20,000 nucleotides of DNA from an uncultured virus (IMG/VR IMGVR_UViG_3300043029_000019). Lineage: Duplodnaviria; Heunggongvirae; Uroviricota; Caudoviricetes. A program made the position numbers and the translations under genes. The notes below the pieces were generated by a model. That model was not told the origin of the DNA and ran no database searches. It saw only the letters and a list, made by a program, of their open reading frames with translations. This document shows positions 1,489 to 20,000 of the stretch, piece after piece. Each line of letters begins with the position of its first letter. Position 1 is the stretch's first letter. The stretch lies in the IMG/VR virus record IMGVR_UViG_3300043029_000019; one strand, written 5' to 3'.

Positions 1489-1881
1489 CTAAACCTCCAT
1501 CTGGTATACTTTGGTCACCAGCTTCCATCCGGTCTTTTTTGCCCGTCGCTCAAACCCAGGTCGAGGGGATGCTGTTTCCAGCCGTACAGCACCAATCTTG
1601 CGAGCGATTTCTTTGATTTCAGGCAAATAGTATTCTTGCGCACTTTTGCCTTTCGCATAGGTGATCCAAATGAATAACTCCAGCTCGCCTGCCGGATTTG
1701 TCTGATGCTGCAACACGCAAAAATCATCACCATGCATGAACAGAGCAGCACGACCTTCACGGCAGGCGTCGTAAACGTCCACCGGTCGCCAAGCAGTTCG
1801 GCATATACGATGAACATGCTCCAGGCCAGGTCGAATTCTGTCCCAGCATGTGCGTATGTCTGTCAGTTTGAGTTTTTCCAT
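1489..1881 (-). CDS. GNAT-fold/acetyltransferase-like virion-associated protein
   Basis: 130 aa; ELFIWITY...EIKEIARKIGAVRLETASPRPGFER...GW pattern resembles the degenerate GNAT proteins that precede ejection genes in podoviruses. Confidence 0.5.
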   Translation of the reverse strand: MEKLKLTDIRTCWDRIRPGLEHVHRICRTAWRPVDVYDACREGRAALFMHGDDFCVLQHQTNPAGELELFIWITYAKGKSAQEYYLPEIKEIARKIGAVRLETASPRPGFERRAKKTGWKLVTKVYQMEV

Positions 1882-1888
1882 AGCCTCG

Positions 1889-1974
1889 AAAACGCAAAAA
1901 GCCCGACCAAAACCGCAAAGGGTTAAGGATCGGGCTTCAAGGTCACCGAGGGAGTGGCGGGACCGTCAATCACC
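1889..1974 (-). terminator. Intrinsic-terminator-like hairpin with conserved upstream motif (copy B of a repeated cis-element)
   Basis: Minus strand: GGTGATTGACGGTC-N16-GACC-TTGA-AGCCCG...CGGGCT-TTTTGCGTTTT, ending about 7 nt before the ATG at 1881. Confidence 0.65.
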
Positions 1975-2007
1975 GTGGGCACTAAATTTTCAGATACTTT
2001 CCCATGT

Positions 2008-4296
2008 TTAAGCGGAAATGTCCAGTTTACATTCGAGCACAAAGGCAATCCGGCACCTGGCACTGGCGGTAAACTTGAGCTTCTTCCATCCGGCCCCGGA
2101 GAAACGGCTTGTCAGATCGATGTTAAGCTGATCGCCAGAATACCAGAGTGGTGTTCCATACCCTGCGCCATTATCGGTGTTGACCGTGATGCTTGGACTG
2201 TTGCTTTCTTCGTAGATGCCGAAATCTATGCCATGGGTATGATTGGGTATCGTAACATCGTGCGTATGAGCGCTTGGAGATTCAGAAGTAGGATTCACGT
2301 AATTCGTACCTGACGCTACCGCACTAACTAAAGAACTGCCATAAAGATAAACCTGCGCGTTGGTACCGCTATACGCGCCATCCAGCGAAAACACATGAGT
2401 ATGCCCGTTGACCTCTGTCGTGGTTACTTTTGCGCCAGAACACCTTAGGGTGTTTGAATCTGCATAGTAATTAACGTATGACTTGCCTACATAACTGTCT
2501 GTGTAATAGGCTCTTATTTCATGATTGTGTCCGTCAGATGTTTCAAGAGTAAAGTCATAATAGCCGCTCGTTGCCCCCCCTGATTTGTAAAGATACAGCT
2601 TGCCATCTTGGTTGCCATACATCAGCGTGTAGCCGGCTGAATAACTGTTGCCCACAATCTTCAATGTATGGTCGTGGGTTGGGACTGGTTCTTCGGTTGT
2701 ACTTTGCACAGATGAACCACCACTCAACGTGGTTGTTGAATAGGCACGATACGGCATAATTTTGAAAGACAATCGCACCGACTGAATCGCTGTCAGCTCT
2801 GATAACAGCAAAAACGGCACTTCAAAAGGATAGGAAGCATCGAGCGAATCCCACCCATTGAATATCAGCGAATTACGCAATTCATTGTATTTGCTTGCCG
2901 TGATGCTGTTGGCTGTGATCTTTCCACCGGAGATATTGGCAACCTTGGCATCGTCCACGGCCAAGTCCTTTATAGCGGCCCTACTTACCGTCAAATCTCC
3001 GATCAGGGCTTCGGAAATAATGACAGCCGGCGACCCGTCGACCGTTCCGACCATGAAGGGAATCGTCAGTGGTTCGCCTTCGCTTGCCGTCGGCTTGACG
3101 ATGGCGAATTTGTCGGCCAGCATGATGATCTCGGATTCAATCGGGCCGGATGCCCCGCCGGATACCGCCACTCCCATGCCGGCGATATGACCATTGGCGT
3201 TGACCTTGATGGTGTGTTCGGCCTCCAGGGTGCCGTCAGCGTTCGCCCGAGCCGTGGCCTCCGTCTGCACGGCGGTATGGGCTGCAGCTAGGCCTGTATC
3301 AGGATCCTCCACGGTTGCTTCGAGTAATGAAATGTCGCCAGCCATAGCACTGTCGGCATCGGCTCTTGCCGATTGTTCCGTGGTTATCGCGGCCTCGTTG
3401 TCTGAAATCCCCCCCTCTGCCGCCGTGACCCTGACCGCCAATGCTTCCCTCGCACTGGCTTCGGCCGAATCTGCGTTCGCCCTGGTCGTGGCCTCGTCCT
3501 GAACTGCGGAGTGCGCCGCGGCCAAACCGGTCGCCGGATCTTCAACCACAGATTGCAGCGTCGTTACGTCCTCGGCGATAGCGTTGTCGGCGCTCTGCCT
3601 GGTCGAGGCTTCGTTATTGACCGCCGCTTCACGATCCGTGACTTCCTGCGCCAGACTATCGATCAACCCCGTTCCCGGGGCGTCGATGTTGTCAATGCGG
3701 GTATTGAGTGTGGAGGCAAGGTGGCTTTCGGACAATTCCCCCTGCAGCAGCTCCAAAACATAGGTAGGTTCATCAGCCGTTGCCGCAGAGGTTCCTGCGG
3801 TGGCGTTGAACGGACCGATGATCGAGGCATCCCACCTGTTGATCGCCCGTACCCAATAGAAATAGGTCGTGGACATGGACGAATCCGGGGGGGTGTCGAC
3901 ATACTTCAAGGCACTGGTGGTGCCAATCTTGACCGCCGTGCCTTGGTCGTCCACCGTGTTACGGAATATCTCATAGTGCCCGATATAATCGCCAGGAGAG
4001 GCAACCCACTCCAGCATAATCTGGTTAAAGCCCCCCGTCGCCGTGAGACCTGTCGGTGCCGAGGGGATGGTGTAATCAGGAGCAAACAGATTCGCTTCAT
4101 TCATAGATTCCTGAATGGCCTGATTTAGCGTTTCCTCGTCCACCGTGGCCACCACTTCCGTGGTCAAACCTGACGAAATTGCCGCTGTCTCTTCCGCAAC
4201 CTGCTTCAGGTGCATGATCAGCGTCTGGATCGCCCGCTTTACTTCGGGATCGACCTTGGACGACAGACTTGGGGTGGTGATGTTGGATGCCGTCAT
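2008..4296 (-). CDS. Tail fibre/tail tip host-specificity protein
   Basis: 762 aa. N-terminal FN3-like domain (PSAPTGLTATGG...YFYWVRAIN...GPFN), coiled-coil repeats (EATARANAD), a DUF1983/gpJ-C-like segment (HTIKVNANGHIAGMGV...ADKFAI...PFMV), and a C-terminal region with five HxH motifs. Confidence 0.8.
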   Translation of the reverse strand: MTASNITTPSLSSKVDPEVKRAIQTLIMHLKQVAEETAAISSGLTTEVVATVDEETLNQAIQESMNEANLFAPDYTIPSAPTGLTATGGFNQIMLEWVASPGDYIGHYEIFRNTVDDQGTAVKIGTTSALKYVDTPPDSSMSTTYFYWVRAINRWDASIIGPFNATAGTSAATADEPTYVLELLQGELSESHLASTLNTRIDNIDAPGTGLIDSLAQEVTDREAAVNNEASTRQSADNAIAEDVTTLQSVVEDPATGLAAAHSAVQDEATTRANADSAEASAREALAVRVTAAEGGISDNEAAITTEQSARADADSAMAGDISLLEATVEDPDTGLAAAHTAVQTEATARANADGTLEAEHTIKVNANGHIAGMGVAVSGGASGPIESEIIMLADKFAIVKPTASEGEPLTIPFMVGTVDGSPAVIISEALIGDLTVSRAAIKDLAVDDAKVANISGGKITANSITASKYNELRNSLIFNGWDSLDASYPFEVPFLLLSELTAIQSVRLSFKIMPYRAYSTTTLSGGSSVQSTTEEPVPTHDHTLKIVGNSYSAGYTLMYGNQDGKLYLYKSGGATSGYYDFTLETSDGHNHEIRAYYTDSYVGKSYVNYYADSNTLRCSGAKVTTTEVNGHTHVFSLDGAYSGTNAQVYLYGSSLVSAVASGTNYVNPTSESPSAHTHDVTIPNHTHGIDFGIYEESNSPSITVNTDNGAGYGTPLWYSGDQLNIDLTSRFSGAGWKKLKFTASARCRIAFVLECKLDISA

Positions 4297-9996: not shown

Positions 9997-11106
9997 TTAA
10001 ATAGACGGGGCAGCCGCAGCGGTATCGATGGCGTATACGCCGAAATCGACGCCGTTGAACGTACACTTTTTAAAGCCCCAGATACACGAGGTCGAGATGA
10101 TGATCTCGTTGTCGTTATCCTCGGTGCCTTCGTACCAGTCGAAGCGCAGACCGACGCCGCCCTTGGAGCCGAACGCCACTGCGCCAGCCTGACGGCCAAG
10201 CACCAGAGCGCGGGCTGCGGCCACGTCGCCACCGCTGCCGTAGTCGGAGAATCGGATAATGCCTTCTTCCTCCTGCAGCACCATGTTGCCGTACTTGCCG
10301 AGGGAGTTTTTGAAAATATCCGCATCCCGACCGACAGCATTGGCCAGAGCTTTCTGCAGGTCCATCCATTGTCCGGTACCGGTATTGGTGCGCAGATCCT
10401 CGGCCTGCTGGGGATTCATCATGCACACATAGTGCTTTTCGCCGTTGATCATGACCGGCTGCAGTTTGGGAGTCCCCTGGGAACCGCCGCCCATGAGTTT
10501 GATAGCCGTCCCAACCTTGTCGAGTTCGGTCAGGGTCATGGTGTCGGTGCTGGCCAACGTCGCCTTGGTTTTACCGCCGCCGTAGCGGATATGGTAGCTA
10601 TCCGGAGCCGACAGGCTGTTGTTAGCGCGACCGGTCCAGTCGGTGTCGTAAACGAAATCATCGTTTACGCCGCGGGCCCCCGACAGATACATGAACACAC
10701 ACTCGGAGAATGCCCGTGCCCACCATTCGGACATGCGCGCCTTGGCGGTATTCCGCATGGAATGCAGGGTACGCTTCCGGGTCATGCGCCCGCCGCCATT
10801 GACGCCGCCGCGCATCTGGTCGATATAGACCGAATCCGAGTAGAATTTCAGCGCTTCTTCGGTCCCGCGCTGCTTGTTGTCCCCCTCTATGGGCCTCTGT
10901 TTGAGCTGTACCGACAGATCGTAAGTGATCTGTTCGCCGGCATCGCTTTCGAGCTCGTCCAGTTGGACAATGGGGGCTTGGGCTGCCTCGCCTTTGCCGA
11001 TGTACTTCCGGTTCCAGGGGTTTTGCCGGGCAACATCGACGGCCATCATGCCGGAGTACCGTTTGACCGCCTTGGGGTCGCCCAGGCCAACGATGGATCT
11101 CGCCAT
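9997..11106 (-). CDS. Major capsid protein, N4-gp56/DUF4043-like family
   Basis: 369 aa; DPKAVKRYS, ELESDAGEQITYDL, EGDN..RGTEEALKFYSD.VYIDQMR.GV and DFGVYAIDTA; follows the scaffold. Confidence 0.9.
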   Translation of the reverse strand: MARSIVGLGDPKAVKRYSGMMAVDVARQNPWNRKYIGKGEAAQAPIVQLDELESDAGEQITYDLSVQLKQRPIEGDNKQRGTEEALKFYSDSVYIDQMRGGVNGGGRMTRKRTLHSMRNTAKARMSEWWARAFSECVFMYLSGARGVNDDFVYDTDWTGRANNSLSAPDSYHIRYGGGKTKATLASTDTMTLTELDKVGTAIKLMGGGSQGTPKLQPVMINGEKHYVCMMNPQQAEDLRTNTGTGQWMDLQKALANAVGRDADIFKNSLGKYGNMVLQEEEGIIRFSDYGSGGDVAAARALVLGRQAGAVAFGSKGGVGLRFDWYEGTEDNDNEIIISTSCIWGFKKCTFNGVDFGVYAIDTAAAAPSI

Positions 11107-11333: not shown

Positions 11334-12380
11334 TTACCTCCCTGCCAAATAGCGTTCCTGCTGTGCCGGTGTCATTTTCTCCAGCGCCGTTTCCAGATCC
11401 ACACCGGTCAGCTTGTCCAGGTGGGCAAACTCGCTATTGTTGGCCTTCGGGTTTTCCACACCAGCGGCCGGCACATCGCCGAGGTTCGGGGCGTCCGGAG
11501 CCTTGGACTTGGGCTTGGCAGTTTTTTGACCCTTGTTTTTCTTGCCGCCCGCGTCGGGCTTGGGCTTTTCGGGAACAAATCCAAATGCTTTTTCCACATT
11601 GGACTTGGCCTGTTCCAGAATCTGCATATGGCCCATATTGCCGATCTCACCAGCCTGCACCATGCGTTTCACTTCGCTGTCCAGGGCGGCAAACTTGGTC
11701 GGGTTGCTCTCCTGGGTATAATCCTTGTGCTGGGACAGGAAGACGGTGACCGCTTTGCCCCAGCGCCGATTCTCGGTCTCCTGCATGCGCTGCTGATAAT
11801 CGTCCGACTTGATCTTGTCCACCTGCTCGTCATACTCGGCGGGCGACAGCTCACCATCGTTGAGTTTTTCGCGCAGGTCTTTGATCTGCTCCTGTGCCGC
11901 ATCGGAGTAATCGAACGGATTGACCGGTTCTTCCTTGTCGTCGTATTCGACCGGTTCGGGATCAGCATCCCCGTCGTCAGGTTCATCTCCTTCGGGACTT
12001 TCCTCGTCGGGGTCGTCCCCATCATCGGTGTCCTGCTCTTCGCCTTCATCGTCTTCGGCATCTTCGCCGTCGGGGTCGTCGCCCTCTTCTCCGACATCAT
12101 CCCCTTCGGGAGCCCCATCCTCCCCGCCTTCATCGTCTTCGGCATCTTCGCCGTCGGGGTCGTCGCCCTCTTCTCCGACATCATCCCCTTCGGGAGCCCC
12201 ATCCTCCCCGCCTTCATCGTCTTCGGCATCTTCGCCGTCTTCCTCCCCGTCATCGTCGGGCAGGTCGACCGGGGAAGCCGTGGCGGTCAGTTCAGCTTCG
12301 TCCACGTCGGCCTCGATGGCGGCGCGTTCCTCTTCCGACAAACTGGCCAATTCCTCATCGCTGTATCCGCTGGTGCTCAT
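11334..12380 (-). CDS. Capsid scaffolding protein (highly acidic)
   Basis: 348 aa; D/E-rich N-terminus; C-terminal PNLGDVPAA...EFAHLDKL.G.DLE.AL.KM...QQERYL; lies between portal and capsid. Confidence 0.75.
   Translation of the reverse strand: MSTSGYSDEELASLSEEERAAIEADVDEAELTATASPVDLPDDDGEEDGEDAEDDEGGEDGAPEGDDVGEEGDDPDGEDAEDDEGGEDGAPEGDDVGEEGDDPDGEDAEDDEGEEQDTDDGDDPDEESPEGDEPDDGDADPEPVEYDDKEEPVNPFDYSDAAQEQIKDLREKLNDGELSPAEYDEQVDKIKSDDYQQRMQETENRRWGKAVTVFLSQHKDYTQESNPTKFAALDSEVKRMVQAGEIGNMGHMQILEQAKSNVEKAFGFVPEKPKPDAGGKKNKGQKTAKPKSKAPDAPNLGDVPAAGVENPKANNSEFAHLDKLTGVDLETALEKMTPAQQERYLAGR
12041..12239. repeat. Perfect in-frame 84-bp tandem repeat (about 2.4 copies)
   Basis: Units start at 12041, 12125 and 12209; encodes EDAEDDEGGEDGAPEGDDVGEEGDDPDG. 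Confidence 0.95.
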
Positions 12381-12404: not shown

Positions 12405-14594
12405 TTATTGGTTGTTGTTCTGCGCAGGGATCCCCCGCGCTGCATCGTCCATAATATCGTCTGCCATGGTCCCAAGTGCCGGGGTCGCATGCAATGCCGA
12501 GGAAATCTCCAGAGCCTGCTTCATGCCGTCGAGCTTTTCGGTGAGGGCCTTGGCCATAGATGTGTTGCCCTTACCTAAGGCTTCCTTGGCCTCGCCTTCC
12601 AGTTTTTCAAGTTCAGCCATGACTTTACGCATCTGCAGTTCCTGATCCTGCTTCTGCTGTTCGTCAAGTTCCGCCTTTTCTTCCTCGCTCAACTCTTCAT
12701 CGTCTGGCCGCTGCCCGGTGATCTTGCGAACCCTTGCCACCACTTCATCACGCATCGGGATGTCGGCCATTTCCAAAGCAATATCCAGCAAGGCCATGGC
12801 CGCCTGTGCCATACCTCCTTGCGCCAGCGCCGTGATCAGTTCCATCATTGTTTCGTACATGGCCTGACGGACACTAGTGTGATATGCCCGCTCGTCAATA
12901 ATGAAATCGGCCTTGGCCGCTGTAACCGGATTTAGAACCTCTCCACCATCGGCATTTTCGTTGATCGTTGTGTATTCCGGATTACCACGCTCGTTGGTCA
13001 GCCGGAATGTCTTTTCCTCGTCGTAATACTGCTCGACCAGGCAAAGCTGCTTCTCGCCGGAGATTTGCCGCGCCAAGCGCAGATTGTCGAACAGATCCAG
13101 CGTTGTAAGGCTGCCCTGTTCCTGCCGCCGTTCAATGGCCGCGCCACTGACAGCATTGGTCTTGCGCCCCATCAGTTCATCGGTGACGCCGGATACCTCG
13201 GAAATGTATTGCGCATCCTGGCCCATCAGATTCACATACTCTTCGGCCAGGGTTTTATCGTTGCGGATCTCCAGGTTCTTATTCGACTTTTTAAAGATGA
13301 TGCCGTCCGGCCGCGCCACCTCTTCGGCCAGTTCGTCCACGTCGTCGACGGCCCCTTCATCGGCTATGACCTGGTTGGTGGCCAGAATAAACTGCGCCTT
13401 GGAACGGGCTTTATTCAGGTCAACCTGGGGATCGCGCAGGTTGCGCACCGCACCGTAAGGGGCGTTGTCGCGCTTGCGCCGATAGCCCCAAACAGGAGTG
13501 AGTGGAAAACGGTTGTGCCAATAAGGAAGCGGTCCTTCGTGCAGTAATTCACCGTCGAATGCCTTTTCGGTTTCCATTCCGGAGGGTGCGGTAAAGATCA
13601 TGTGCCGCATCACCATCATCATGCGATTGCCGACAATGGGAGCCAGGCCGTTCTCCACGGCCCACACAAGCACTTGGTCCTGCTTGTTGTACCAACAGCC
13701 TCGAAAAGGACCGTTGCCGCCGAGAATCTGCACCACTTCAGGGTTTTTGTACCAGCACTCGACCAAACGCACACGTTGGCGCCGGGTGCCGTCGCCGTTG
13801 GGAATATTGTCGACATAAGCGGTACGCGACTCGCCCACCACGCGCAGATCGTCATCGTCCATGCCGGTCAGATAAGACTGATTCTCAGCCGCTGCCTCCA
13901 AGACCCTCTCATGCCCCTTGAACAGCATCTTGGCCACGTCCAGATCGATGGACCGGCTGCGGAACAGGAAACGGGCGTCGCTCATGTCCGGCTCGACGCT
14001 CAGGTGGTCGTAATGAACGTTGCGCCAATTCTCGTAACGCACGAACAGCTTTTCCTCTAGAGGGTTGGGGTTGATCCCCTCTTCCACCCAGCCGACCCCA
14101 GCCGATACGCCATCATCGAACGCTCGGGACCATATTGAACGCTGGCGATTAACGTCATGCACGTATTTCAGCAACTTGGTCTTGCTCTCGGCACCATCAG
14201 CATCTTCCTTGCCGCGGGGAACCACCTTGAAATCGACGCGGGTGCGCTTTTCGCTGCCGGTGATCCAGGCGATGGCCGGCTTGATCTTGTTGAACACCAG
14301 CGGCGCCTGATTGCGGTCGCGCAGGGCCTGAATTTCATCTTCGGTCCACTGAATGCCGTCGCGGAAATCCTGATCTGTTGCCATCTCGACTCGGTTGTCC
14401 GACTGATAATCACGCTCGTCGATGTAGCGACACAGCATCTGCGTGAACCGTTTTTGCACTTCTTTCTTCTGCAAATGAGCCTTGGACCTGAGCGCCTGCG
14501 GAACAGGCTGTGCAGCCAAAAGTTCAGCCTCTTTGTCTACCCATGGCTGGCGGGCTTGGACTGTGCGTACATTCTCGATCTGCGCTTGATTCAT
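12405..14594 (-). CDS. Portal protein, P22-like
   Basis: 729 aa; DFRDGIQWT...R.Q.PLVFNKIKP, G.GWVE, PYG.VR.LRDPQ.DLNK, SG.AIERRQEQG and a C-terminal coiled-coil barrel. Confidence 0.9.
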   Translation of the reverse strand: MNQAQIENVRTVQARQPWVDKEAELLAAQPVPQALRSKAHLQKKEVQKRFTQMLCRYIDERDYQSDNRVEMATDQDFRDGIQWTEDEIQALRDRNQAPLVFNKIKPAIAWITGSEKRTRVDFKVVPRGKEDADGAESKTKLLKYVHDVNRQRSIWSRAFDDGVSAGVGWVEEGINPNPLEEKLFVRYENWRNVHYDHLSVEPDMSDARFLFRSRSIDLDVAKMLFKGHERVLEAAAENQSYLTGMDDDDLRVVGESRTAYVDNIPNGDGTRRQRVRLVECWYKNPEVVQILGGNGPFRGCWYNKQDQVLVWAVENGLAPIVGNRMMMVMRHMIFTAPSGMETEKAFDGELLHEGPLPYWHNRFPLTPVWGYRRKRDNAPYGAVRNLRDPQVDLNKARSKAQFILATNQVIADEGAVDDVDELAEEVARPDGIIFKKSNKNLEIRNDKTLAEEYVNLMGQDAQYISEVSGVTDELMGRKTNAVSGAAIERRQEQGSLTTLDLFDNLRLARQISGEKQLCLVEQYYDEEKTFRLTNERGNPEYTTINENADGGEVLNPVTAAKADFIIDERAYHTSVRQAMYETMMELITALAQGGMAQAAMALLDIALEMADIPMRDEVVARVRKITGQRPDDEELSEEEKAELDEQQKQDQELQMRKVMAELEKLEGEAKEALGKGNTSMAKALTEKLDGMKQALEISSALHATPALGTMADDIMDDAARGIPAQNNNQ

Positions 14595-16570: not shown

Positions 16571-18079
16571 TTACGCTGTCTTCCAGCTTCCCTTCTTACG
16601 CCTGCGGCTTCCTTTGGTGGCCGGCACATACCGATACCCGCGGGCCAGTGTTTCCAGTGCGTCATAACCGTGCATCGCCCAATCGTGCCGCGGGCGGTTC
16701 TTCCAGCATCCGTTGTGGTCGTCCCATTCGCGCCGGAAGTTGTCCAGACACTTGATCCCTTCGCTGCAGGACTCTTCATCGAACCAGCATGTTGGCAGGA
16801 ATTGCCGCGTCTCCTGGATCGCCGTGTACTTATCGTCAATCCTGGGGACCACGACGATGTTTTGCATATTGGCGTCGGACAGGATCTGTTCAATGGTGCG
16901 CGGTTTTTCGTCGGCGCTCTTGGTGGATCCCATACGGCGCTGGCCGGCATCGTGCGGCAGAAAGTGTTGCCCCCAGATGTAACCGAGCCTTTGCATCTCC
17001 CGCCAGTAGTACAAAACGTCATCGTCGGATCCGGTCATATAGCCGATGATCCGGTTTTCCAGTCCCACCCGCTGATGGAACCAGATGCACATAAGGTCGT
17101 TGAGGCCGAAGTCCCAGGCGCTGTTAACCGGTATGCCAGGCTCATGCGGCACCGTGGTAATGCGTACATCCTTACGAAGCTTGGCCATCTGCTTGGCCAG
17201 ATAGGCCCCCTCGATGGCGGCGGCAAATGCTTCTTCGGGATAGCTGGGATGTTCTCGGGTCATATCGTCCTGCAACGTCTTGAGCTTCTCGGCGTACCAG
17301 GCTTTCTGAAACGGATCGAGCTGGACACCGGTAATCGCCTCGATCTCGGCAAAATACTTGGCCAGTTCCTTGGTAATGACCACGCCTTTCGGATTCAGCC
17401 GCTTACGAGGATCTTCCCACCAAGCGAAGAAATGCAGCTTGTACTGCAGCTTATTCGGCTTTTGCCCTGCCTGCTGCCGTTTCAAGGCCTCCATGCAGTA
17501 ATCGTAAAAGTAGCCGTCGTTGCCTTCAGCGGTGCTTTCGATAAAGATCATGTTGCCGGGGTGGACTGTTTCCAGGGTGCCGGTGACAATCTCCCGGGCC
17601 TTCTCGGGGAATTTGGCGCACAGCTTGCCGAACTCGGAGATATGCACCATCTGATAGGTGCCTGAACGCAAACTTGTCCCGACCTCGATCATGGACCCGT
17701 TCCCAAACTTGAGCTTCTTCGCGCTTTCGGTATCGGCCGGACGTGCGTTTTTCAACCCATCAGGAAGCTCGTCGTAGGGGAATTGCACCTTCTTTTCGTG
17801 GATCTTCTCCACGTCTTCCCGGGTATGGGCGTTGATACCCACCGAGTAATGATCCCGAAACAGCGCCTGATCCAAACCGAAAATCCCCAAAAAGGTGGTG
17901 AAACCCAACTGGCGGGCCTTAAGGATCAGGTTGAGGTACCACAGGTTTTCAATGAGCGTGGTTTGCGCTGCGTTCGGCCTGAACGGGGTCTTTTTGCCGT
18001 CCTCGTTCACGCAGTAATACAGGTTGTGCAGTCTCCACATTGGAGAGCTGAAATTTTCAATCAACTCAACGCGATTCAT
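16571..18079 (-). CDS. terL: Terminase large subunit
   Basis: 502 aa; Walker A ILKARQLGFTT, Walker B VHISEFG, motif III ESTAEG, nuclease WDFG, LPHDA and HDWAMHGYDA. Confidence 0.95.
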   Translation of the reverse strand: MNRVELIENFSSPMWRLHNLYYCVNEDGKKTPFRPNAAQTTLIENLWYLNLILKARQLGFTTFLGIFGLDQALFRDHYSVGINAHTREDVEKIHEKKVQFPYDELPDGLKNARPADTESAKKLKFGNGSMIEVGTSLRSGTYQMVHISEFGKLCAKFPEKAREIVTGTLETVHPGNMIFIESTAEGNDGYFYDYCMEALKRQQAGQKPNKLQYKLHFFAWWEDPRKRLNPKGVVITKELAKYFAEIEAITGVQLDPFQKAWYAEKLKTLQDDMTREHPSYPEEAFAAAIEGAYLAKQMAKLRKDVRITTVPHEPGIPVNSAWDFGLNDLMCIWFHQRVGLENRIIGYMTGSDDDVLYYWREMQRLGYIWGQHFLPHDAGQRRMGSTKSADEKPRTIEQILSDANMQNIVVVPRIDDKYTAIQETRQFLPTCWFDEESCSEGIKCLDNFRREWDDHNGCWKNRPRHDWAMHGYDALETLARGYRYVPATKGSRRRKKGSWKTA

Positions 18080-18702
18080 CCTCTTGAAACTTCTGTTACA
18101 AGCGCCCTTTCAATTGGCCAACCCCTTCTTATTCTGTTGCGCACGAGGTAATAATCTAGGCCGGCATTTTCTGCCAATTCGGCCAAGCTTTTTATTGCAC
18201 CTCGATACTCAACCAACTTGGTTCCCCTCCTATTCCTCATTTGCTCTTTTTGGGATGCCCATCGACAATTACTTGGTGCGTAATTTCCATTCACATCAAT
18301 CCGGTCAAGTGAATATTCAGAGCCGGGCTTCTCTCCCATGTCGGACAAAAAAGCCTCAAAGCTATTTCTCCACCTAGAGCAAACCTTTATGCCGCGTTCA
18401 CCGTAATGCTTGAATTTCTCCGAGCCGACTCTTTCACACCGGTCAATCATTCCAGTCCAAGCCTTGTACTCGGGCGTCCCCACTCTTCCATGAACAGAGA
18501 GCCTTTCTTTGCTTTTCTCGTTTCGCAAGCAGCCGCAACTTCTTGTGTCACCGTTTCGCAAAGACTGGCCAACTATTTCCGCCCGCTCGCCACAGTCACA
18601 CAGGCAAATCCAAGTTAGGTGTCCATTCCGATTTCTTTGCCCCTTCGCTACAACCAACAGCCGTCCAAACCTTTGGCCGATAAGATCAATAAGCTTGCCC
18701 AT
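18076..18702 (-). CDS. HNH-type (homing) endonuclease-like protein
   Basis: GQRFGRL, WICLCDCG, SCGC, YGERGIKVC.RW, F.AFL.DMG and SLDRIDVNGNY.PSNCRWA..KEQ.RN motifs; more AT-rich than its neighbours. Confidence 0.85.
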   Translation of the reverse strand: MGKLIDLIGQRFGRLLVVAKGQRNRNGHLTWICLCDCGERAEIVGQSLRNGDTRSCGCLRNEKSKERLSVHGRVGTPEYKAWTGMIDRCERVGSEKFKHYGERGIKVCSRWRNSFEAFLSDMGEKPGSEYSLDRIDVNGNYAPSNCRWASQKEQMRNRRGTKLVEYRGAIKSLAELAENAGLDYYLVRNRIRRGWPIERALVTEVSRG

Positions 18703-18798: not shown

Positions 18799-19416
18799 TC
18801 ATTCACCGTCCTTGACCAGGCTGGCATTGCGCTGCGCAACTTCGTCCAGGACGGATTCAAGGTCGGAAACCGGGCCCTGCTTCTCGTCCAAATTGAAGGC
18901 TTGACGTTCAAGCGCGATCAGGTTTTTCATGGCCGTCGACAGGTCGCGGATGGTCCCAGCATGCCCCGGGAGGGAAACGGCCCGAAGCATTTGGTTGCGG
19001 CGCTTGACGTTGCTGTCACCGGCTGTCTCATCTTCAATGGCGTCCTCGATCTCGTCGCGGTTGGTTGCGGCTTCTTCGAGTTGCCCCATAAGGAGGCCAA
19101 CCAAGGTACGACCGTGATTTATGTCCTTGCGGTGAAGCCTGATAACTTCGGCCCCGCGTTCTGCAGCCGCCTCGACAACCTCGGCTTCGTTAACACTCGC
19201 GTTACCCTTGTTAACCTCTGTGTTAACCAGCTTAGCGTTAACCGCTTTTCGTACCTGGTTGCTCAGGTCGCGGTTCCACCCCTCCTTTTTGGCTTTCTTG
19301 GTGATTGCAGGAGCGGATACGCCGTATTCCCGACCGATTTCACGAATAGACAACTGGCCGGCGCGATACTCACGCTCAACGGCTTCCCAATCGATCTTTT
19401 TACGTTTATCTGCCAT
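18799..19416 (-). CDS. terS: Terminase small subunit
   Basis: Likely start ATG 19416 (MADKRKKIDWEAVEREYRAGQLSIREIGREYGVS..AI.KKAKKEGW.R, an N-terminal HTH); C-terminal LIALERQAFNLD; upstream of terL. Confidence 0.8.
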   Translation of the reverse strand: MADKRKKIDWEAVEREYRAGQLSIREIGREYGVSAPAITKKAKKEGWNRDLSNQVRKAVNAKLVNTEVNKGNASVNEAEVVEAAAERGAEVIRLHRKDINHGRTLVGLLMGQLEEAATNRDEIEDAIEDETAGDSNVKRRNQMLRAVSLPGHAGTIRDLSTAMKNLIALERQAFNLDEKQGPVSDLESVLDEVAQRNASLVKDGE

Positions 19417-19426
19417 TGTCCCGCCC

Positions 19427-19506
19427 AAAAAAAAACAAAAGCCCGGCAAAAGCCTTTCGGCCTGCCGGGCTCCCGGTCGCATCCTCCTGGAGGACCGTGA
19501 ATCACC
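19427..19506 (-). terminator. Intrinsic-terminator-like hairpin with conserved upstream motif (copy A of a repeated cis-element)
   Basis: Minus strand: GGTGATTCACGGTC-N14-GACC-GGG-AGCCCGGCA-GGCC-GAAA-GGCT-TT-TGCCGGGCT-TTTGTTTTTTTTT, ending 10 nt before the terS ATG. Confidence 0.75.
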
Positions 19507-19617
19507 TGTATCGTCAGTAGAGGCCTCCGCCTCTTTTCTGTCGGGGAATGGGCAGCGCTACCAATCAGCCCGTCGACCGATCACCCCTTGCGGAGTGCAT
19601 CCCCCTTCCCGTGTGAT

Positions 19618-19800
19618 TTAGAATTCAAGTGCTACCTGCGGGGGTTTGTCCACCCCGCCACAGTTCATGTGGATCTTTACGGTTACGGTGCCGCTGAATT
19701 GATCCCCAGCCAGATCTACAGCTTTGGGAACCATCTCACGGACCTTGGAGCATGCCCGGTTTACCAATTGATTTACCTTGCGTTCCGTGCCGTCTTTCAT
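19618..19800 (-). CDS. Small hypothetical protein (60 aa), first ORF of the late transcript
   Basis: ATG 19800 after a GGAGGGG RBS: MKDGTERKVNQLVNRACSKVREMVPKAVDLAGDQFSGTVTVKIHMNCGGVDKPPQVALEF. Confidence 0.65.
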   Translation of the reverse strand: MKDGTERKVNQLVNRACSKVREMVPKAVDLAGDQFSGTVTVKIHMNCGGVDKPPQVALEF

Positions 19801-19832
19801 CGCCCCTCCACATCCACTGAACATTTTTGATG

Positions 19833-19861
19833 AGTCTGCCAGAAAGCTCGGTGTAATGCAA
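19833..19861 (-). promoter_or_regulatory. Candidate sigma70-type promoter
   Basis: Minus strand TTGCAT-17 nt-CAGACT with an extended TG; AT-rich upstream region. Confidence 0.4.
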
Positions 19862-20000
19862 GGGGGTTTTGAATATAGACGATTACCCGAGGGTAGGTAA
19901 ATATCTCAACTTTCGCAGACGAAAAATATCTTTAACATGCTGAAATAAATAGACAAAAGCATCATCTCTTGTTGTAAAATAGGTTATCGCCAAACAACCT

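Follow-up and report, generated by a model that had tools for sequence, protein, structure and literature searches.

A candidate late-gene switch in an uncultured tailed phage: a 60-residue protein and RNA boxes abutting repeated terminators

The question raised by this locus is how transcription could reach the packaging and virion genes of an uncultured tailed phage when an intrinsic terminator stands between their promoter and the first start codon, and whether the 60-aa protein and the structured RNA encoded ahead of that terminator take part. An earlier note on this DNA had suggested that the small protein may be the factor acting on a repeated element at the terminator, and the present study considers that suggestion together with its alternatives. 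The DNA analyzed, here called the window, is a stretch of 20,000 nt taken from a linear viral contig of 37,163 nt, in which it occupies bases 16942-36941; the contig is rated 61% complete. All genes of the contig lie on the minus strand; its end is reached 222 nt past the window, and the early region is missing from it.

The short transcription unit ahead of terS

The order of elements read in the earlier note is confirmed on the minus strand, namely promoter, gene for the 60-aa protein (ORF60), leader RNA, terminator and terS (Table 1), followed in the direction of transcription by an HNH endonuclease gene, terL, the portal and major head protein genes, and the internal virion and tail-fibre genes. 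Given this anatomy, a short transcript running from promoter to terminator would yield a protein plus a structured RNA. The first gene behind the terminator, terS, starts at the ATG at 19416 and not at 19419. The module is located at the boundary between replication genes and late genes, and replication or nin-like genes precede it in relatives (replication initiator, DnaB, RusA, RecE-like exonuclease). Further along, the HNH endonuclease gene looks like a free-standing homing endonuclease inserted in the terminase operon. Just upstream of it, in the 96-nt gap that follows the terS stop, there is a full-length match to the Rfam family int-alpA (RF02996; 18716-18785, minus strand; 46.6 bits against a gathering score of 35.8, E 5.5e-7). 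Three tandem copies of an 84-nt repeat with 67-100% identity (11982-12264) occur within ORF 11334..12380 (minus strand), which is flanked by the portal gene (12405..14594) and the major head gene (9997..11106).

Promoter A was aligned by eye, a consensus scan having made no call there. Its spacer ends in TGG, which is an extended -10, and this arrangement (TTGCAW or TTGATT, 17 nt, TGn plus nAGAnT) precedes ORF60 in the relatives L004, L031, L032, L036 and L051. The promoter that the scan did call, at 19901..19872, is not the site conserved in relatives and sits at the edge of an IS-like repeat. The insertion of this repeat some 40 nt ahead of the conserved promoter follows from three observations: the depth of contigs jumps ~40-fold from ~19900 in three public runs, several contigs diverge at 19865-19905, and the plus strand at the contig end codes for a transposase-like N-terminus. 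The upstream neighbours of promoter A differ by lineage, being a methyltransferase, small ORFs, divergent genes or an IS, and no conserved gene was found upstream of the promoter across the lineages compared. Just after the -10 there is an 11-mer, AAAAATGTTCA, which is near-identical in L004 and L031, related in L032, and absent from G402, a complete 55-kb relative.

Terminator A is an intrinsic (Rho-independent) terminator, with a G+C-rich hairpin and a U tract, and the other strand is without a U tract; a simple terminator scan missed it because of an internal bulge. Together with the adjoining box it folds at -38.3 kcal/mol (z -3.71). The terminator ends 10 nt ahead of the terS ATG, which leaves terS without room for a promoter of its own, and a similarly tight layout of terminator and late gene occurs in L004, L032, L036 and L051. 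In the comparison of the window with L004, box and terminator are the best-conserved piece: pre-box, box and terminator stem are identical at 74 of 75 nt, against 84% identity for ORF60, 80% for the four-way junction described below and 66% for the first 117 nt of terS. In box A, loops and linkers show no less conservation than the stems.

In the more distant L032, L036 and L051 the box core CGGU..GCR..RYCG is kept with its tip changed or absent; the hairpin tip differs per lineage (AGGA, UUCG, a triloop, 14 nt) and is missing in L036 and L051. Across the five lineages the terminator base GCCCGG...CGGGC-U(n) follows 2-5 nt 3' of the box hairpin, and the late genes come next. In the terminator stem of L036, pair 7 has changed from C-G to U-A and pair 6 from G-C to G-U. 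These box and terminator pairs are described from the sequences themselves, MAFFT alignments of the five orthologues misplacing the short boxes of L036 and L051. No alternative pairing, in which the box hairpin would overlap the 5' half of the terminator, was found by reading the sequence. A pattern scan of viral contigs for the box returned nine loci, four of them family members and five of them chance matches (L042-L045, L047) in coding regions without a terminator.

Table 1. Positions of the features discussed; coordinates are those of the window unless another contig is named.
Feature	Position	Strand	Details
Late promoter A, sigma-70-type	19833..19861	-	-35 TTGCAT (19861..19856), 17-nt spacer, -10 CAGACT (19838..19833)
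Motif AAAAATGTTCA	19818..19828	-	11-mer just 3' of the -10; also after the -10 of promoter C (C1:~2056-2066, -)
ORF60 (60-aa protein gene)	19618..19800	-	RBS GGAGGGG at 19809..19803
Four-way-junction RNA	19543..19605	-	From fold and pair counts on window, L004 and L036
P1	19605..19598 with 19550..19543	-	GGGGGAUG/CAUUCCCC
P2	19597..19582	-	CACUCC-GCAA-GGGGUG
P3	19581..19564	-	AUCGGUC-GACG-GGCUGAU
P4	19562..19551	-	GGUA-GCGC-UGCC
Hairpin P5	19519..19534	-	AGAGGC-GGAG-GCCUCU; kept in L004, absent in L036
Box A	19474..19515	-	Conserved stretch GACGAUACAGGUGAUUCACGGUCC plus hairpin CGGUC...GACCG (19497..19474), variable tip
Intrinsic terminator A	19427..19470	-	GCCCGGCAGGCC-GAAA-GGCUUUUGCCGGGC; 8-bp G+C-rich base, inner stem, U tract UUUUGUUUUUUUUU (U4GU9)
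terS (terminase small subunit)	18799..19416	-	phrog_1206, E 4.9e-57 (query began one codon early, 19419)
HNH endonuclease gene	18076-18702	-	phrog_374, E 5.5e-70; between terS and terL, 4-nt overlap with terL start
Unit B	1889..2024	-	Promoter-like TGGACA (2024..2019), 17 nt, TGg plus GAAAGT (2001..1996)
Unit B box	1974..1960	-	GGTGATTGACGGTCC ... GTGACC
Unit B terminator	1935..1889	-	Directly before ORF 1881..1489 (phrog_610), after tail-fibre gene
Unit C	Contig C1, ~2080..1983 (outside window)	-	Promoter TTGACC-17-CACTAT, looser box, terminator; precedes endolysin cassette

Repetition of the box and terminator along the genome

The claim of a repeated element is borne out. A 15-mer of the box, GGTGATTCACGGTCC, recurs with one mismatch just upstream of the terminator of unit B, and with up to two mismatches allowed it gives 2 matches against 0.04 expected, none of 200 shuffles giving 2. 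Including unit C, which lies on the phage's contig beyond the window, the three units follow one another along the minus strand of the contig, in the order A, B, C; this is the coding strand. With box A, boxes B and C and those of distant relatives have no more than a loose core in common. The box lies ~330 nt from the promoter in unit A and 20-30 nt from it in the other two, and in each unit the RBS and start codon of a late operon follow within 10-25 nt, the operon being without any other promoter.

The contig continues beyond the window with a 4544-aa ORF (L065:2282-15916, minus strand) and then the endolysin cassette. The giant ORF belongs to the operon behind box-terminator B, and its PHROG matches are to DarB-like antirestriction, DNA methyltransferase and helicase proteins. 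A reading of the phage as N4-like, with an N4-type virion RNA polymerase, was rejected on these matches, and with it the idea of the box as a hairpin promoter was dropped.

A comparable arrangement is found in relatives. The complete genome G402 carries the same three units on its coding strand, at 13825, 30377 and 45679; the unit at 30377 precedes an Amidase_3 gene, and that at 45679-45716 precedes a homologue of ORF 1881..1489 and is orthologous to unit B. Two units are present in the Desulfuromonadales MAG G001. As a separate observation on G402, a reverse transcriptase lies next to a bAvd-like gene (L064:13391-15096, minus strand) and looks like a diversity-generating retroelement.

In each unit a strong terminator follows the promoter and precedes the first start codon, so that the packaging, virion, DarB-like and lysis genes would be expressed only on read-through. 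It is likely, in our assessment, that the three late operons are gated by promoter-proximal terminators that are regulated. An alternative explanation could be that there is no switch, that the terminators are ordinary and leaky and ORF60 is unrelated to them; the upstream hairpin would then protect 3' ends, or units B and C would be small-RNA genes and unit A the source of a 3'-UTR-derived small RNA. A promoter followed after ~60-100 nt by a terminator does have the form of a small-RNA gene, and loops and linkers as conserved as the stems in box A fit a seed or a protein-binding sequence better than mere structure. This would not account for the position of the units before late operons that have no other promoter, and leaky expression of lysis genes would be costly. 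Among the phage sense transcripts scanned, no pairing target for the 24-nt box stands out, the best pairing being -27.0 kcal/mol and the mean best of shuffled boxes -27.6. An absence of any switch is thus considered improbable, and regulated terminators are preferred.

The small protein, the leader RNA and other candidate regulators

If the terminators are regulated, the next question is by what. ORF60, read from 19800 to 19618, encodes the 60 residues quoted in the earlier note. Homologues were found at 98% and 87% identity in a clustered protein database, at 45%, 42% and 37% in an exhaustive representative search and at 67%, 68% and 42% in a profile search. The family consists of about nine clusters with a core of 60-63 aa throughout, and C17, R21, P25, G32, F35, G37, G48, G49, P54 and F60 are invariant. 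Compared with L004, the difference is 0.52 at synonymous and 0.05 at non-synonymous sites (pN/pS 0.09), and pN/pS is 0.15-0.48 in the other nine pairs; from these ratios and the spread of clusters, ORF60 is, on sequence grounds, a real gene.

The family had no match in the GenBank phage collection at either the DNA or the protein level, and a class-level genome search found it in 1 of 401 genomes, that one being the genome at the centre of the search; the sole hit among genomes is a Desulfuromonadales MAG. Scans of viral contigs with the single proteins P0014, P0012 and P0008 returned no further members. A 23-residue match in L037 (E 2e-4) inside a long coding region was dropped as a non-homologue, and apparent fused forms of ORF60 (proteins of 672-3246 aa, a plant LRR kinase) were rejected as short repeated matches around residues 28-42 only. 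In G402, a small hydrophobic-looking and possibly membrane-spanning ORF (L036:3185-3424, plus strand) overlaps the stop of the ORF60 homologue and precedes a structured leader; it has no counterpart in the window.

The shape foreseen for the protein, a helix and then beta structure, agrees with the AlphaFold (AF2) model, in which a helix spans residues 3-31 and short strands residues 38-42 and 55-59 (mean pLDDT 77.7). The loose likeness to YezD/DUF2292 proteins, by contrast, found no support, there being no Pfam match at E <= 10 among six family members. For the window protein itself no Pfam family was matched at E <= 1 and no PHROG at all, and NCBIfam gave nothing of note across nine family members. 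The Foldseek comparison that had been asked for returned no match at E <= 0.001 with the ORF60 model; the best row was GnsA (4xo2_B, E 0.68, TM 0.50, rmsd 4.4 over 56 columns), for which VIA gave Z 3.6 and rmsd 3.5 over 54 aligned residues with no Pfam match, and a wide VIA search with ORF60 reached at best Z 4.1. A profile search of the PDB gave nothing beyond a short LRR-like motif shared with a plant LRR kinase, and the best score in the ESM Atlas (0.85) was to viral clusters without names. The family is mildly basic (pI 7.8-10.0; K+R 7-10 of 60, spread along the sequence), and neither Pfam, Foldseek, VIA nor charge gave a nucleic-acid-binding signature.

The association of ORF60 homologues with the box and terminator, a check proposed in the earlier note, was found in all five distinct lineages with downstream DNA (window and L002; L004, L030 and L031; L032, L034 and L035; L036 and L033; L051 and L052). 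Of the outcomes that the earlier note named as refuting, two were examined, namely homologues without the element and leader stems without covariation (see below), and both examinations went in favour of its reading. ORF60 is the only gene always linked to the promoter and the terminator. It was found in none of five terS relatives that lack a box-terminator before terS, the same model detecting the family in G001; in two of these relatives there are generic terminators with the same base and without a box, adjoining a gene on the opposite strand. As these phages are distant, the absence lends weak support to the co-occurrence, and with five lineages only, at orthologous positions, shared descent explains part of it. 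In the comparison of the window with L004, homology falls off immediately 3' of the terminator, terS being 48% identical in amino acids, and the terS family behind ORF60 and the box-terminator is phrog_1206 in the window and L032, and phrog_51 in L036 and L051. Since they are kept beside divergent terS genes and other terS families, ORF60 and the terminator travel as a mosaic module. One terS relative without ORF60, L011, has a promoter and terminator directly before terS, which indicates that promoter-terminator attenuators do not need ORF60.

The leader is strongly structured. Its minus-strand fold has a minimum free energy of -92.5 kcal/mol (z -4.15; 0 of 200 shuffles as good), and the opposite strand gives z -3.11. 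The three hairpins named in the earlier note (P2, P3 and P5) are present in this fold, and the fourth small hairpin, P4, makes the domain a four-way junction. The helix said to enclose them fared partly: the inner hairpins stand, whereas the outer pairing GGGAAGGG/CCCATTCCC does not, covariation favouring GGGGGAUG/CAUUCCCC. The stems do covary, with 8 of 31 pairs changed on both sides among the window, L004 and L036, which are three sequences only and the same three from which the structure was derived; with the partner slid the number is 0-2, and 0 of 500 shuffles reach this. Junction cells are paired at 96.6%, against 35-54% with the partner slid. The G-U pairs make the structure strand-specific and so point to RNA.

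The near-identical contig L002 begins inside the leader, which had prompted the idea of a cos or pac packaging site in the DNA; this was rejected, as stems with G-U pairs covary on the sense strand only and other contigs run through. The leader matched no known RNA family: Rfam cmscan at E <= 1 gave nothing in 19420..19900, the int-alpA match being the sole one in the window, and nothing in the leaders of L004, L032, L036 and L051. A pattern scan of viral contigs on the strand of the junction found four loci, three being family members and one a chance match in coding DNA (L038).

The distribution of the junction is narrower than that of the box. It occurs in 3 of 5 ORF60 lineages; L032 has a different leader of 300 nt (z -1.17) without a four-way junction, and L051 has ~40 nt from stop codon to box, also without one. 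In one contig from another run, 121 other letters replace the 115-nt stretch of junction and P5, with ORF60 and the box-terminator kept. On this comparison of lineages the multi-hairpin domain is not an obligatory partner of ORF60, the constant partner being box plus terminator.

These observations bear on the possibility of a cis-acting RNA, in the manner of conAn, HK022 put or EAR, in which the four-way junction would make polymerase resistant to terminators A, B and C, and ORF60 would either aid processivity, as ConAn1 does, or play no part. Such an RNA is consistent with the order of first gene, large structured RNA and terminators, which matches conAn, with the covariation in the junction and with the co-linearity of A, B and C on the minus strand. 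It would not account for the lineages and the further contig in which the junction is missing or replaced, nor for a conserved box at each terminator and the own promoters of B and C, and a constitutive cis antiterminator beside terminator A would give no switch. We therefore regard a cis-acting RNA as unlikely.

The best single hypothesis, which is the model of the earlier note, partly supported here and held tentatively, is that ORF60 is the leading candidate for a read-through factor acting on the box-terminators. Host RNA polymerase would start at promoter A, transcribe ORF60 and the structured leader, and meet terminator A, with the packaging, head and tail genes expressed only on read-through; units B and C would gate the DarB-like giant-gene operon and the lysis cassette, each behind its own promoter. 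The ORF60 protein, made from the short terminated transcript, would accumulate and act in trans on the box RNA at each terminator, or on paused polymerase there, to suppress termination, so that the three late operons would come on jointly, with a delay. Because the box abuts each terminator whatever the distance to the promoter, a locally acting trans factor is suggested. Since the transcript that stops at terminator A includes ORF60, this protein would be the first to appear and could act as a timer. Several observations given above count against this model, namely the lack of a family, fold or nucleic-acid-binding signature in ORF60, the small and syntenic sample of lineages, the loose boxes B and C, and the layout of L011. 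Two considerations add to them. If the phage is temperate, a constitutive promoter A with a self-encoded antiterminator would leave it without control, and the near-total conservation of loops would also fit a small-RNA function.

Alternatively, the terminators may be regulated by another factor, either a phage protein of the early region (for example, one acting in a Q-like way at the promoters) or a host factor, with ORF60 a bystander and the short transcripts by-products or small RNAs. It is a point in favour of such a factor that AAAAATGTTCA closely follows the -10 in both promoter A and promoter C, which is the region where Q-type factors engage polymerase; Q proteins of the lambda, 82 and 21 types work with a promoter-linked DNA binding element and a -10-like pause element in the stretch transcribed first. 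The contig is without the early region, in which such a protein could be encoded, and among the G402 genes are many small ORFs without assignment and one for a TraR/DksA-type zinc-finger protein. The latter is a 72-aa ORF (L063:7363-7578, minus strand), and two transposase genes are also present in that genome. The layout of L011, with promoter, terminator and terS and without ORF60, is likewise in keeping with another factor, and the StxS small RNA produced from PR'-tR' of Stx phages is a precedent for such transcripts, as described in the available part of that report (PMC7547250).

Other observations fit a separate factor less well. Known antiterminator families (Q, N, AlpA) were not found among the ORFs scanned of G402, L032, L036 and L051, the scan comprising Pfam on 38 small or unassigned G402 ORFs and PHROGs on the scanned ORFs. 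ORF60 is always conserved between lineages and the upstream genes never are. A Q-type processive mechanism leaves a box at every terminator unexplained, given its very different distances from the promoters, and the shared motif is absent in G402. A factor other than ORF60 accordingly appears rather unlikely, while retaining some weight, and ORF60 is kept as the preferred candidate. Whether ORF60 in fact founds a new class of small antiterminators, which would recognise an RNA box abutting the terminator and switch three late operons in trans, with the four-way junction as an added cis-regulatory or small-RNA domain, is a further step that we consider somewhat doubtful; if true, it would be a terminator-proximal late switch of protein plus RNA that differs from N, Q, put and conAn. 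The cis elements are uncommonly easy to read here, so that the hypothesis is directly testable with a reporter and one small protein.

Relation to known systems

How tailed phages time their late genes has been worked out in a few models, namely Q, N and the late activators Ogr, C and gp55, and to our knowledge most environmental phages have no recognisable late regulator. The locus resembles lambda Q/PR'/tR' in its sigma-70 promoter, its promoter-proximal intrinsic terminator before a long late operon and its short terminated transcript, and it occupies the same genome position as Q/PR' of lambdoid phages, after replication and nin-like genes. It differs in that no Q family was found in the ORFs scanned, in that the short transcript encodes a protein, and in that there are three gated units rather than one, each with a box at its terminator that Q does not need. 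The likeness to lambda N/nut lies in a small phage protein at the start of an operon, a hairpin RNA box upstream of terminators and a feed-forward timer. In contrast to N, ORF60 is not arginine-rich or disordered and has a predicted helix and sheet; the loop of boxB is its recognition element, whereas the tip of the box hairpin here is not conserved, and every terminator has its own box 2-5 nt away, where nut occurs once in an operon.

A protein-binding hairpin directly 5' of an intrinsic terminator, acting locally with one site each, as is proposed here, is also the arrangement of BglG/SacY-RAT, ANTAR and HutP. ORF60 is without these domains, Pfam giving no CAT/PRD, ANTAR or HutP match, and the alternative pairing between box and terminator was not found.

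In architecture the locus is also like conAn, in which a first gene, a structured non-coding RNA and terminators lie in one transcript, judging from the parts of that account available (PMC8191782). That account describes conAn as a bipartite antitermination system of Gram-positive conjugative plasmids in which protein and RNA work as a pair, the RNA antiterminating and the protein extending its range; conAn2 is ~300 nt, AT-rich with a GC-rich patch, and conAn acts in cis only, and processively (PMC8191782, as far as its available text goes). ConAn1 is much larger than the 60 aa of ORF60, with codons 1-103 and 82-172 having been tested and hence at least 172 codons, the two being compared here by size (PMC8191782, same portion). 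The constant partner in the present case is, unlike in conAn, a box at each terminator behind separate promoters, and this repetition of an abutting box calls for action in trans. Similar too is the capsid operon of the Bartonella gene-transfer agent with its Q21-like BrrG, where a constitutive promoter and a long attenuating leader with a terminator precede capsid and packaging genes; the regulator there is a Q21-like DNA-binding protein from another locus, and the available part of that report describes no small ORF or repeated box (bioRxiv 10.1101/2024.11.20.624540).

Pfam, PHROGs, NCBIfam and Rfam contain no entry for the protein family, the RNA domain, the box or the three-unit layout, and the same parts were not found in open-access full texts on phage late antitermination. 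Confirmation would add a new protein family and RNA motif for antitermination and provide a compact, orthogonal terminator switch. In comparison with the systems above, the control logic is known, resembling that of lambda Q/tR', N/nut and conAn, and the parts are new.
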